From: Escherichia coli
GTDB lineage: Bacteria; Pseudomonadota; Gammaproteobacteria; Enterobacterales; Enterobacteriaceae
DNA: 64,000 bases
NCBI RefSeq assembly: GCF_050920415.1
Contig: NZ_CP169309.1
Reading direction: 5' to 3' (one strand)
Below the pieces are notes generated by a model. That model made no database searches and had not been told where the DNA came from. It worked only from the letters and a program-made list of their open reading frames with translations. Below are positions 3,648 through 5,390 of the stretch, one piece after another. Position 1 is the first letter of the stretch. Every line of letters begins with the position of its first letter. A program made the position numbers and the translations under genes.

Positions 3648-4841
3648 TTAGAACTGGTAGACTAAGCCCACAGCAACGATATCATCGGTAGCGATGCCGT
3701 TTGCTTCGTAGAAGTCATCATCGTTGTCCAGCAGGTTAATTTTGTAATCAACATAGGTGGACATATTTTTGTTGAAGTAGTAGGTCGCACCGACTTCAAC
3801 GTATTTGACCAGATCTTTGTTAGTGTAACGCGGGTCGCCGTTGCCGTCATGAGCCCAGCCGCCTAAATCCTTACCTTTAGATTGCAGGTAAGCGATGGAC
3901 GGGCGCAGGCCGAAGTCGAACTGATACTGAGCAACAACTTCAAAGTTTTGGGTTTTGTTAGCGATGGCTGATCTTGATTCACCATTATCAAACTCGCCAC
4001 CACCATATGGGGTCATATTGCGAGTTTCAGCGTACATAGCTGCTAAATACACATTATTAGCATCATATTTTGCACCAACAGTCCATGCTTCAGCGGTTTC
4101 ACCACCAGCATTTCTGTTGCTATGGTTACGATCATTTAAACCAACTCCAACCTGGCGATCTGAGCGATCAGAGTTTGAATATGCAGCACCCAGACTTAAA
4201 CCGAAGTCGAAGTCGTAGGATGTAGACATACCGAAACCATCACCATTTTCTTTGGAAAGGCTACGGCCATCACCACTACCGGAACCTTCCTGCCCGAAGG
4301 GGCCACCACTTTCATTATTATCCTGATATTGCAGAGCAAAGTTCAGACCATCAACCTGACCAAAGAAGCCATTGTTACGGTAGGTTGCAACGCCGTTGGT
4401 ACGACCGTTCATGAAATTGTCGGCACCAGCATAGGTATCACCACCAAATTCTGGCAGCATATCGGTCCATGCTTCGATATCATATACGACACCGTAGTTA
4501 CGACCATAGTCGAAAGTACCATTCTGACCAAAACCTAAACCTGCGAATGCCAGACGGGTAGCAGAGTTATCGCCATCGCCTTCTGTGCCATTTGCCTGCA
4601 GGTTGTATTCCCACTGACCGTAACCAGTGAATTGATCAGCGATCTGAGTTTCACCTTTGAAACCGATACGAGCATATGACATATCGCCATCAGCGCCCGA
4701 GTTGTCAGAGAAGTAGTGCAGACCTGCTACTTTTCCGTAGAAATCCAGTTTATTACCATCTTTATTATAGACTTCAGCCGCATTTGCTGCGCCAGCAACT
4801 AATAACGCCGGGACCAGCATTGCCAGAACTTTTCTTTTCAT
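3648..4841 (-). CDS. yedS: OmpC/OmpF-family outer membrane porin (YedS-like), apparently intact
   Basis: ORF 3648..4871; likely start [21 protein letters not shown] (signal peptide) then [16 protein letters not shown] and C-terminal ...VAVGLVYQF typical of general porins. Confidence 0.8.
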
Positions 4842-4871
4842 TATGTATTCCCTTGTGATTATAATCTTCAT

Positions 4872-5390
4872 GAATATATCAATAAGTGCCGTTATCCAAA
4901 AAAAAGCACATTTGGATACTATTCTATGAAGTTCATTTTATTTTAAGGATTACATGTAACAAATGTATTTAAAAGATTTCAAAATGTTTCCAATCTATTT
5001 AATATAATTCAGAATTATGAATTATAGATATATACATTCATGAAAATTATGAATATATATCAATATGTTATGATTTGATTGAAAAGATAGGAAGTGTCAA
5101 TGATTGTTGCGCCAGACGGCCTATGTGATCGCGCGCACATTAATGAAGGCATAAAAAAAGCCGGCTTCATGCCGGCCCAAAAAATATAAACAAGACGATA
5201 AAAGGCTAATAACGGGGTTATCATGACACAGAAATCTAAAAAGGTATAATTGTATTCAGTGCTAATGTATTGTTTGGGTGAATTAATAAAACCATTATCC
5301 AAGATAAAAATAAATCTTTATTGCTGTTTTTCCGGTAATTATTGCCGTTGCGCAAAAACTATCTATTTGCTCAAAAAATGGTTGAGTCTT
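4872..5390. promoter_or_regulatory. AT-rich upstream region of the porin gene with repeated TGAATATAT-type motifs (possible OmpR-type boxes)
   Basis: Very AT-rich; motif ATGAATATAT(A)TCAATA occurs twice about 170 bp apart, plus related ATGAATTAT copies. Confidence 0.3.

Follow-up and report, generated by a model that had tools for sequence, protein, structure and literature searches.

The yedS locus of the window, a 64,000-nucleotide stretch of Escherichia coli DNA, probably holds a functional-looking, quiescent porin of the OmpC/OmpF type, with control of the OmpR/H-NS/RybB kind and the small RNA gene rseX as its neighbour. The porin gene (3648–4841, minus strand; 397 amino acids plus stop) encodes an OmpC-family general porin and belongs to the allele family of the K-12 pseudogene yedS. 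The gene order is hchA / yedS / rseX / drpB / yedJ / dcm, with the porin transcribed away from drpB, and the same arrangement is present in ten E. coli and four other Escherichia genomes. The divergent gene drpB (yedR; 5491–5772, plus strand; annotation and NCBIfam DrpB equivalog at 149.6 bits) bounds the intergenic region. The yedS gene, its pseudogene state in K-12, functional clinical alleles, rseX, and a polymorphic yedS-drpB intergenic region are already known from the literature, and the locus is an ordinary one of little importance on its own. Its map offers a concrete model of how a silent porin might be expressed, composed of a predicted OmpR-type block, an H-NS-prone spacer, CRP-like sites and a RybB site.

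A sequence-only reading of this DNA had described the porin ORF as complete, with a signal peptide and a C-terminal Phe, while allowing for an internal disruption missed by eye. The 397-codon frame is uninterrupted and ends in VGLVYQF, no lesion is found across its 1,194 nt, and the product matches Pfam Porin_1 (PF00267) at full length (477 bits against a cutoff of 23.7; residues 27–397 on model positions 1–337 of 337), so that the description stands. A classical porin signal peptide opens the translation, which also contains the L3 motif LPEFGGD (eyelet PEFGG) and ends in the C-terminal Phe (...VYQF). The part encoding the 21-residue signal peptide (4779–4841, minus strand), with cleavage placed after ANA from sequence reading and an alignment of 18 alleles, is invariant or nearly so throughout the Escherichia alleles in that alignment. 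Among NCBIfam models the protein exceeds the cutoff of the OmpC subfamily (NF007841; 537.8 bits against 484) and falls short of the OmpF (465.8 against 583) and PhoE (441.2 against 599) equivalogs, and is thus neither OmpF nor PhoE. It is not the ompC gene itself either, the locus being a different one; automated annotation nonetheless names it ‘ompC’, which may mislead analyses of porin loss in carbapenem-resistance work. The closest solved structure by sequence is OmpK37 (PDB 6v78; E 1e-145, residues 21–397), with OmpC at 1e-123, and a trimeric 16-strand beta-barrel fold is predicted from homology to solved porins. OmpK37 of Klebsiella pneumoniae is also classed in reviews as a normally quiescent porin, although its locus differs and the mature part of YedS is approximately 40 residues longer (376 versus about 335–355 amino acids), with the extra residues mostly in variable stretches rich in Gly, Asp, Asn and Ser.

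In the ORF list the frame begins 10 codons before 4841, at an in-frame ATG (4871). We do not take this for the true start, as a Shine-Dalgarno sequence is missing there, whereas a conserved AAGGGAA precedes the ATG at 4841. Some database entries put the start of the YedS protein these 10 codons too early.

Identification as YedS-like, and the statement that the K-12 ortholog is a pseudogene, are both borne out, the first by the synteny of the yedS locus and by 94% nucleotide identity to the K-12 copy, and the second by annotation and by the lesions themselves. Relative to the window allele, K-12 yedS (b4496) is interrupted by a stop at codon 162 and lacks 1 nt near CDS nt 663; the alignment otherwise runs over the whole CDS with only that gap. 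The two loci share chromosomal position, neighbours and the placing of rseX (b4603 in K-12) 312 nt upstream of the porin start codon, and the K-12 promoter block is 98.8% identical to that of the window. Unlike K-12, the window strain has a low-GC/IS insertion of more than 3.5 kb at 51 nt past the yedS stop, which cuts the native intrinsic terminator, and this loss could affect yedS expression in the strain. The intact allele had also been thought worthy of note, but comparison across strains does not sustain this, since 8 of the 10 E. coli yedS loci inspected have an intact porin. The protein database contains hundreds of full-length alleles, with 522 sequences in the 94%-identical cluster; given how common intact alleles are, the intactness of this one is unremarkable. 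Disrupted alleles also recur, in K-12, as a truncation in T16R, and through an IS1 insertion in H8.

The region upstream of yedS is indeed very AT-rich, at 70.5% over 4842–5390 and 72.7% over 4842–5152 against a window average of 50%, with a peak of 76–86% between 4900 and 5100. Its earlier treatment as a single 0.5-kb upstream region does not hold, however, because the rseX gene and its terminator, which had been missed, sit within it. This known Hfq-binding sRNA gene (5153–5242, minus strand) is oriented as yedS and matches Rfam RF01401 from model position 1 to 94 of 94 (99.3 bits, gathering score 50, E 1e-13); its intrinsic terminator is a hairpin (5158–5178, minus strand) followed by a T run. 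The K-12 annotation has rseX at the same position, between yedS and drpB. Because rseX and its own terminator occupy about 90 nt, the control DNA of yedS can extend at most over 4842–5152. The gene is also present in E. whittamii, E. albertii and Escherichia sp. E1V33, and was seen only in Escherichia, not being found in the other genera compared. RseX is described in the literature as binding Hfq and repressing ompA and ompC; its promoter is silenced by H-NS/StpA, and a Rob motif has been proposed there (PMC8313858).

The yedS control region is probably 4842–5011, a 170-nt block that 4,877 of 5,426 complete E. coli genomes share at 95% identity or more, and that is nearly invariant across the genus Escherichia in our alignments. 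A putative -10 hexamer, TAGAAT (4921–4926, minus strand), would place the transcription start near 4914 (4912–4917), and is kept as TAGAAT, TGGAAT or TGAAAT, then AGTAT, in Enterobacter and Leclercia. The putative -35, TCCTTA (4944–4949, minus strand), lies 17 bp upstream of the -10 and has only two of six matches, as would be expected of an activator-dependent promoter. A promoter within the proximal copy of the repeated motif discussed below (TTGATA ... TATAAT at 4882–4858) was rejected, its 13-nt spacer being too short for sigma-70. An upstream, CRP-dependent second promoter (TTGACA-16-TCAAAT, approximately 5100–5073) is possible, with a -10 that is poor and not conserved.

Upstream of the putative -35 are six tandem 10-bp OmpR-like half-sites, TGAATTATAT TAAATAGATT GGAAACATTT TGAAATCTTT TAAATACATT TGTTACATGT (4952–5011, minus strand; about -97 to -38), one of which is 1 bp out of register. 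They were located with a position weight matrix (PWM) built from seven K-12 ompF/ompC OmpR sites of verified sequence, and the phased matches rank 4th, 20th and 30th of 128,000 window positions, a result inflated by the use of only seven AT-rich sites on an AT-rich target (true sites score -6 to +18 when left out in turn). In each Escherichia allele the matches fall at -159/-149/-138 relative to the ATG, and Raoultella, Enterobacter and Leclercia have comparable ones. The sequence-only reading had proposed an OmpR matrix scan and had taken the repeated motif to suggest several regulator binding sites. The region does look multi-regulator; within the limits of a small and AT-biased matrix, the six half-sites, which had gone unnoticed, appear to be better-supported candidate binding sites than the motif, whose copies are not a conserved operator pair.

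The ompC and ompF promoters, each with three 20-bp OmpR sites (C1–C3, F1–F3), have tandem 10-bp phased half-sites of GxxAC type and a weak -35, as is predicted for yedS, and the core ACATTTTGAAA is common to the yedS half-sites and ompC C1. The distance from the last half-site to the -10 is 25 nt in yedS, for its putative -10, and 27–28 nt in ompC and ompF. The yedS promoter differs from both in being far more AT-rich, in lying in H-NS-prone DNA, and in having half-sites that are predicted, including the one off register by 1 bp.

Next to the conserved block is a variable spacer (5012–5100; 76–86% AT) with the densest H-NS motifs of the window, as scored by the matrix of Lang et al. (taken from PMC2094087); the bin at 4801–5100 has 19 matches, the highest among the 300-bp bins of the 64 kb. 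The haplotype of the spacer (141 nt adjoining the block) is found by megablast in 18 of 5,426 genomes. Such AT-rich, motif-dense DNA is consistent with H-NS silencing of the sort reported for Salmonella ompS1. A CRP-like palindrome, TGTGATCGCGCGCACA (5124–5139), has conserved half-sites and a variable spacer across Escherichia, and a perfect CRP consensus core, TGTGA-N6-TCACA (5416–5431), 60 nt upstream of the drpB start codon, is conserved in 11 of 11 aligned E. coli sequences.

The predicted 5′ UTR (4842–4917, minus strand; approximately 72–76 nt, its start placed from the -10) is AU-rich and invariant across Escherichia, and its elements ATATTCAT and AAGGGAATAYATAATGAAAAGAAAA are common to four genera. 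A structured leader or 5′ hairpin was considered and dropped: no stable fold is significant (z-score +0.53), the consensus structure reaches just -0.5 kcal/mol, there is no informative covariation, and the small leader hairpins, taken genus by genus, are not significant. Duplex calculation does predict a RybB pairing site at codons 2–7 (4821–4838, minus strand; +4 to +21 of the mRNA), where RybB nt 1–16 would pair at -17.2 kcal/mol with none of 60 shuffles as good, and where the controls behaved as expected (ompC -17.4, ompF -18.4, and Salmonella ompN -18.9 kcal/mol). The site is conserved in Enterobacter, Leclercia and Raoultella alleles. Pairing of MicF (nt 1–33), MicC and RseX with the leader is no better than with shuffles, while the MicF-ompF and MicC-ompC controls worked, and MicA is borderline (-14.7 kcal/mol at -74 to -57, equalled by 5% of shuffles). 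Five sRNAs were tested, and the repeated motif pairs with none of them.

MicF-dependent control of YedS was reportedly described by Warner et al. 2013 (Antimicrob Agents Chemother 57:1935). The clinical YedS of that work reportedly resembles that of the window in being an intact, translatable allele in a non-K-12 strain, whereas the MicF dependence is not reproduced by our duplex calculation. Functional YedS of clinical E. coli is reported to affect carbapenem susceptibility, as cited in PMC11267920 and PMC4048246. Both ompS and ompN are RybB targets (PMC1804206), and ‘yedS (ompS1)’ drops 2.5-fold upon sigma-E induction in K-12 (PMC2731931). In the Salmonella RybB-ompN duplex, which has 16 bp in the 5′ coding region (PMC1804206), the same seed (nt 1–16) and the same position (+4 to +21) are used as predicted for yedS, and the targets in yedS and ompN are almost identical (AAAAGAAAAGUUCUGGCA against AAAAGAAAAGUAUUGGCA), the predicted yedS duplex having one extra internal mismatch and the correspondingly calculated -17.2 versus -18.9 kcal/mol.

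The repeated motif is real, yet by sequence comparison does not appear to be a conserved operator pair. It had been described as occurring twice, with a 1-nt indel, together with related copies. The proximal copy (4870–4884; ATGAATATATCAATA, exact; coding strand TATTGATATATTCAT) would lie at about +31 to +45 of the predicted transcript, and the distal copy (5049–5065; ATGAATATATATCAATA) is inside a 20-bp OmpR-like match (5052–5071; ATAACATATTGATATATATT); an inverted copy with two mismatches (5023–5037, minus strand; inverted repeat I3) is in the variable region. The copies are therefore present as described, except that the indel between the first two is of 2 nt rather than 1. At three or fewer mismatches, 1.84 occurrences of the motif would be expected in the window, and six are present. 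The 311-bp region was also simulated 2,000 times at matched composition; 9.6% of the simulated sequences had an exact repeat of 11 nt and 0.55% the gapped 15/17 match, for a pattern that was defined post hoc. The distal copy has an OmpR PWM score of 13.9, the third best of the window, and the proximal copy one of only 6.1.

The further suggestion that the repeats might be without conservation is correct in part. None of the Escherichia sequences compared departs from the proximal copy, but this invariance is shared with the whole 170-nt block around it, and just ATATTCAT is retained in other genera. At the distal site most Escherichia sequences compared retain only the core ATAAC-N5-TGATAT, most other E. 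coli alleles have TATTGATATACATTTAT, and no distal copy is seen in the alignment with other genera. The long match is specific to a rare haplotype present in few genomes.

We infer the yedS start, the -10 and -35 and all protein-DNA contacts from the sequence. In the mechanism that we propose, transcription would start near 4914 from a good -10 (TAGAAT) and a poor -35, and would need phosphorylated OmpR on the six tandem half-sites (-97 to -38), in a geometry like that of ompC and ompF. H-NS/StpA on the 76–86% AT DNA at and upstream of the promoter would keep yedS silent in ordinary culture, and an antagonist such as LeuO may lift this silencing, by analogy with Salmonella ompS1 and the rseX promoter. 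Sigma-E-dependent RybB would pair with codons 2–7 and shut down the yedS mRNA in envelope stress, and the YedS protein would be exported via its Sec signal peptide to form a trimeric 16-strand beta-barrel diffusion pore. The proximal motif would be part of the leader (+31 to +45), and the distal copy would overlap a possible upstream site that is OmpR-like or H-NS-prone (-151 to -135).

Salmonella ompS1 is said to have been studied as a quiescent porin by Oropeza 1999, Flores-Valdez 2003 and De la Cruz 2007. In Salmonella enterica it is a quiescent, OmpR-dependent minor porin of the OmpC/OmpF family that is silent in culture, silenced by H-NS/StpA, and derepressed by LeuO (PMC4264507, PMC4393010, PMC7145609). 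Our likening of yedS to ompS1 goes by the literature and by annotators' names (‘ompS1’ in PMC2731931, and ‘outer membrane protein S1’ in one database entry) rather than by sequence alignment. A YedJ-anchored genome scan recovered loci in Escherichia, Enterobacter, Leclercia, Raoultella and Pantoea and no Salmonella locus; a Salmonella match (P0173) was rejected as ompS1, because its place between rstA and rstB makes it ompN/ompS2. A further difference from ompS1 would be the presence of rseX, which was found only in Escherichia among the genera compared.

There is close to an even chance that the repeat is a chance similarity of low-complexity AT sequence, its proximal copy being kept as mRNA leader for contact with the ribosome, Hfq or an sRNA. 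An 11-nt exact repeat is hardly rare in the simulations (about 10%), the long form of the motif is confined to the rare haplotype, and conservation of the two leader elements across four genera points to constraint at the RNA level, although the lack of significant RNA structure, the failure of all five sRNAs to pair with the motif and the rarity of the gapped match (0.55%) speak against it. That rarity instead favours matched sites of one protein, either OmpR or H-NS nucleation like that of proU (TCGATATATT), which would sit on either side of the promoter (about -143 and +38) and, by looping or bridging, trap RNA polymerase and silence yedS. We consider this unlikely. Both copies do read xxxAC-N5-GATAT on the coding strand (distal ATAAC ATATT GATAT, proximal GGCAC TTATT GATAT), the distal one is the third-best OmpR match, with ATAAC and TGATAT as conserved columns in a variable stretch, TTGATATATT fits the proV H-NS site at 9 of 10 positions with a score at the 99.8th percentile, and the title of Oropeza 1999 speaks of negative and positive control of ompS1 involving OmpR. 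However, most E. coli alleles have TTGATATACA at the distal site, with an H-NS matrix score of only 1.2, and in E. albertii and Escherichia sp. E1V33 this site is below the OmpR threshold; other genera keep the proximal ATATTCAT without a distal copy, and the proximal copy combines a low OmpR score with an invariance common to the surrounding 170 nt.

It is very improbable that the proximal motif belongs to a MarA/SoxS/Rob box (ACGGCACTTATTGATATAT; 4874–4892, minus strand) giving the mar regulon direct control of YedS. The box matches at 12 of 14 specified positions, GCAC included, a Rob motif has been proposed at the neighbouring rseX, and citing papers have Warner 2013 linking MarR/MarA to YedS; but matches of equal quality occur in the window at the chance rate (19 versus 18.4 expected), a position of about +22 to +40 is unusual for a marbox, and the reported route is via MicF. 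A different kind of doubt concerns the gene itself, which in the window strain might be intact but effectively dead, permanently silenced or destabilised as a pseudogene in the making. The cut terminator and the repeated pseudogenes at this locus (K-12, T16R, H8) would fit such a fate, which we nevertheless regard as improbable, given 1,194 nt without a lesion, full identity with other intact alleles in promoter, leader and signal peptide, and the 522 members of the 94%-identical protein cluster. A quiescent, functional-looking porin remains our preferred reading of the locus.

Tentatively, and with some doubt, the yedS locus may be regarded as a cassette-like site of long-lived allelic replacement. 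If true, this would imply exchange between genera, or else that phages or host immunity, for instance, keep a supposedly silent porin under balancing selection, and selection on YedS would argue for its expression and exposure somewhere in nature. The diversity of the alleles is sharp-edged, a hint that a surface protein is under selection, and may merit population study. Among E. coli strains the promoter, leader, signal peptide and 3′ flank are 96–100% identical, and in the mature part (approximately nt +99 to the stop) the classes have only 51–57% amino acid identity, with alleles differing at up to 48% of amino acids. Some E. coli classes are nearer to alleles of Leclercia (77%), Enterobacter (76%) and E. 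albertii (83%) than to other E. coli alleles.

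The yedS coding sequence is a single unbroken frame of 397 codons (3648-4841, minus strand), and its product contains the porin L3 motif LPEFGGD, ends in ...VGLVYQF, and covers the full Pfam Porin_1 model (477 bits), such that the porin is complete, as the sequence-only reading had proposed. The product scores 537.8 against the NCBIfam OmpC subfamily (curated cutoff 484) and under the OmpF and PhoE equivalog cutoffs, and among solved structures OmpK37, OmpK36, and OmpC come nearest (E 1e-145 to 1e-123). The NCBI pipeline labels the gene 'ompC'; the true ompC sits elsewhere. An ORF finder opens the frame 10 codons early, at an in-frame ATG (4869-4871, minus strand) from which several 405-aa database entries appear to have been annotated, and we reject this start because it has no ribosome-binding site, the ATG at 4841 being preceded instead by AAGGGAA. 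K-12 and the best genome match, NZ_CP169399.1 (99.9%), have in common the gene order hchA, porin, drpB (yedR), yedJ, dcm, vsr, yedA; in NC_000913.3 the pseudogene yedS (b4496) occupies the porin's place, with the small RNA gene rseX (b4603) just upstream. Relative to the window allele, the K-12 sequence is interrupted by a stop at codon 162 and lacks 1 nt near nt 663, with 94% identity otherwise; it is therefore a pseudogene, as the sequence-only reading had stated.

Comparison of alleles across strains reveals no internal disruption in the window ORF, and an intact porin at eight of the ten E. coli loci opened, with K-12 disrupted and T16R truncated; one further genome among the genome matches (H8) has an IS1 insertion at yedS. 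Many full-length alleles in the protein database are 88-94% identical to that of the window, one cluster alone having 522 member sequences, and a functional YedS from a clinical isolate has already been published (Warner 2013, as described in the citing papers PMC11267920 and PMC4048246). The observation of an intact yedS is correct, and it is nothing special: the locus is ordinary and already described. Among the loci opened for comparison (L003-L020), yedS-locus porins vary from 352 to 397 aa, with identity within E. coli down to 51%, and the E. coli allele classes have only 51-57% amino acid identity in the mature part (window 3750-4742). For some classes, the similarity to alleles from Leclercia (77%), Enterobacter (76%), or E. 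albertii (83%) exceeds that to the other alleles of E. coli. This divergence is limited to the segment from approximately nt +99 to the stop codon, with flanks that are 96-100% identical on both sides. The yedS-yedR intergenic region has been used earlier as a host-informative marker, and no paper on the classes of the coding region turned up in the literature searches run.

The upstream region is composite. Rfam identifies rseX at 5153-5242 on the minus strand, which also carries yedS (99.3 bits; gathering score 50), with a canonical terminator in the sequence at 5178-5158 (minus strand); RseX is an Hfq-binding small RNA that represses ompA and ompC. The control DNA of yedS therefore comprises at most 4842-5152, and the promoters of rseX and drpB account for 5243-5490. 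A strong promoter-like match, ATGACA-16-TATAAT (11/12), is located at 5223-5250 (plus strand), antisense to the rseX 5′ end and directed towards drpB. In an intergenic alignment of 11 E. coli sequences, to which E. whittamii, Escherichia sp. E1V33, and E. albertii were added, positions 4842 to ~5011 are nearly invariant genus-wide and 5012-5150 are variable. Of 5,426 complete E. coli genomes, 4,877 carry the 170-nt block next to yedS at 95% identity or more; megablast recovers the adjoining 141 nt in the window's haplotype from only 18.

On the coding strand, the invariant block contains six head-to-tail 10-bp units (TGAATTATAT TAAATAGATT GGAAACATTT TGAAATCTTT TAAATACATT TGTTACATGT; 5011-4952), a weak predicted −35 (TCCTTA), a predicted −10 (TAGAAT, 4926-4921), and, from the presumed transcription start, a leader of ~75 nt preceding the start codon. 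With a position weight matrix built from seven K-12 OmpR sites, whose sequences were confirmed in the ompF and ompC promoters, phased matches in this block rank 4th, 20th, and 30th among 128,000 window positions, the matrix being small and AT-biased. The same matches are present in every Escherichia allele. Raoultella, Enterobacter, and Leclercia have similar tandem matches in comparable places, and their syntenic porins share GAAAYATTTTG(A/C)AAT ... TTACATTT. As in ompC and ompF, the OmpR-like sites stop ~25 nt before the −10, and the −35 is poor. These tandem sites are the best-supported set of regulator sites at yedS, and the set remains a prediction. The earlier proposal of several regulator sites was right in spirit, but the wrong element was chosen and rseX was missed. 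The window's two best OmpR-matrix matches lie elsewhere, at 46973-46992 and 47025-47044 (plus strand; 20.3 and 14.9 bits), between ORFs that from their translations are probably sdiA-like and uvrY-like response-regulator genes.

The element originally singled out is a repeated motif with a proximal copy (ATGAATATATCAATA, 4870-4884, exact), a distal copy (ATGAATATATATCAATA, 5049-5065, a gapped match), and an inverted copy with two mismatches (5023-5037). In simulations matched to the dinucleotide content of the region an exact repeat of 11 nt arises often (9.6%) and the full gapped match rarely (0.55%). The repeat is real, but its conservation is more sobering. The proximal copy, which would occupy approximately +31..+45 of the transcript, is invariant in Escherichia, as is all of the surrounding sequence, and outside the genus only ATATTCAT is kept; a marbox over this copy matches at chance level and was discarded. 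In most E. coli the distal site is TATTGATATACATTTAT, and across most Escherichia sequences only ATAAC (ATAAG in Escherichia sp. E1V33) and TGATAT, 10 bp apart, are kept. These are the elements that a putative OmpR site would require, and the 20-mer at 5052-5071 is the window's third-best OmpR match, falling under threshold in E. albertii and Escherichia sp. E1V33. The motif's coding strand also holds TTGATATATT, which agrees in 9 of 10 positions with TCGATATATT, the H-NS nucleation site of proU (PMC2094087); in contrast, the H-NS matrix gives a low score to the distal-copy variant that is usual in E. coli. The two copies may therefore form a looping or bridging pair, although support for this is weak.

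Four matches to TGTGA-N6-TCACA with no more than one mismatch occur in the window, two of them within the yedS-drpB intergenic region. The CRP-like palindrome immediately downstream of the rseX terminator (5124-5139) keeps its half-sites AATGTG / GATCACA, whereas its 6-bp spacer differs between Escherichia species, a footprint-like pattern for this candidate site. A candidate upstream promoter follows it, with TTGACA at 5100-5095. A perfect core, TGTGACTTTTATCACA, is located at 5416-5431, 60 nt before the drpB start codon; it is kept in all 11 aligned E. coli and suggests that drpB or the divergent rseX is under catabolite control.

The 300-bp bin at 4801-5100 contains 19 H-NS matrix matches, the most of any in the 64 kb, and the AT content of the yedS upstream DNA reaches 86%. 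Silencing of rseX by H-NS/StpA has been demonstrated (PMC8313858), and Salmonella ompS1 is reported to be silenced by H-NS/StpA and derepressed by LeuO (PMC4264507, PMC4393010, PMC7145609). Because of these lines taken together – motif density and AT content, rseX silencing, and the analogy to ompS1 – silencing of yedS is most likely why the porin is 'quiescent'. Genomic SELEX targets listed for PgrR (YcjZ), a LysR-type regulator, include 'yedX/yedS' alongside leuL/leuO (PMC5934670).

Post-transcriptional control was assessed by seed-restricted duplex calculations, in which the controls behave as expected (MicC-ompC −26.5, MicF-ompF −27.1, RybB-ompC −17.4, and RybB-Salmonella ompN −18.9 kcal/mol). 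RybB nt 1-16 is predicted to pair with yedS +4..+21 (codons 2-7) at −17.2 kcal/mol, with none of 60 shuffles as good. The site is the same as in Salmonella ompN, and is also kept in the Enterobacter, Leclercia, and Raoultella alleles. The predicted pairing fits with the drop of 'yedS (ompS1)' mRNA on sigma-E induction in K-12 (PMC2731931), and with ompS and ompN being RybB targets in Salmonella, where the ompN coding region forms a near-perfect 16-bp duplex (PMC1804206). In the same calculations MicA pairing with yedS is borderline, and MicF, MicC, and RseX show no pairing above background; the yedS leader has no significant fold.

In strains without an insertion, an intrinsic terminator with a 12-bp stem and a T run is located 43 nt past the yedS stop (1475-1506 in L003, one of the comparison loci). 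In the window, homology to these strains stops at 3597, 51 nt past the stop codon; the native terminator is therefore cut, and no canonical terminator was found after the gene. Beyond 3597 is an IS5-family transposase pseudogene (2772-3593, plus strand) adjoining the yedS 3′ end, with a frameshift and an internal stop in the matching RefSeq annotation, and then a 35-38% GC island (~800-2800). The island, which has transposase fragments on its flanks, contains a 465-aa ORF (832-2229, plus strand) with no match in Pfam or NCBIfam. The stretch at 700-2400 is found at at least 95% identity in only 17 genomes; coverage of 80% or more is reached in approximately 398, with identities of 80-90% in nearly all of them, and in one genome a related partial copy adjoins uhpA.
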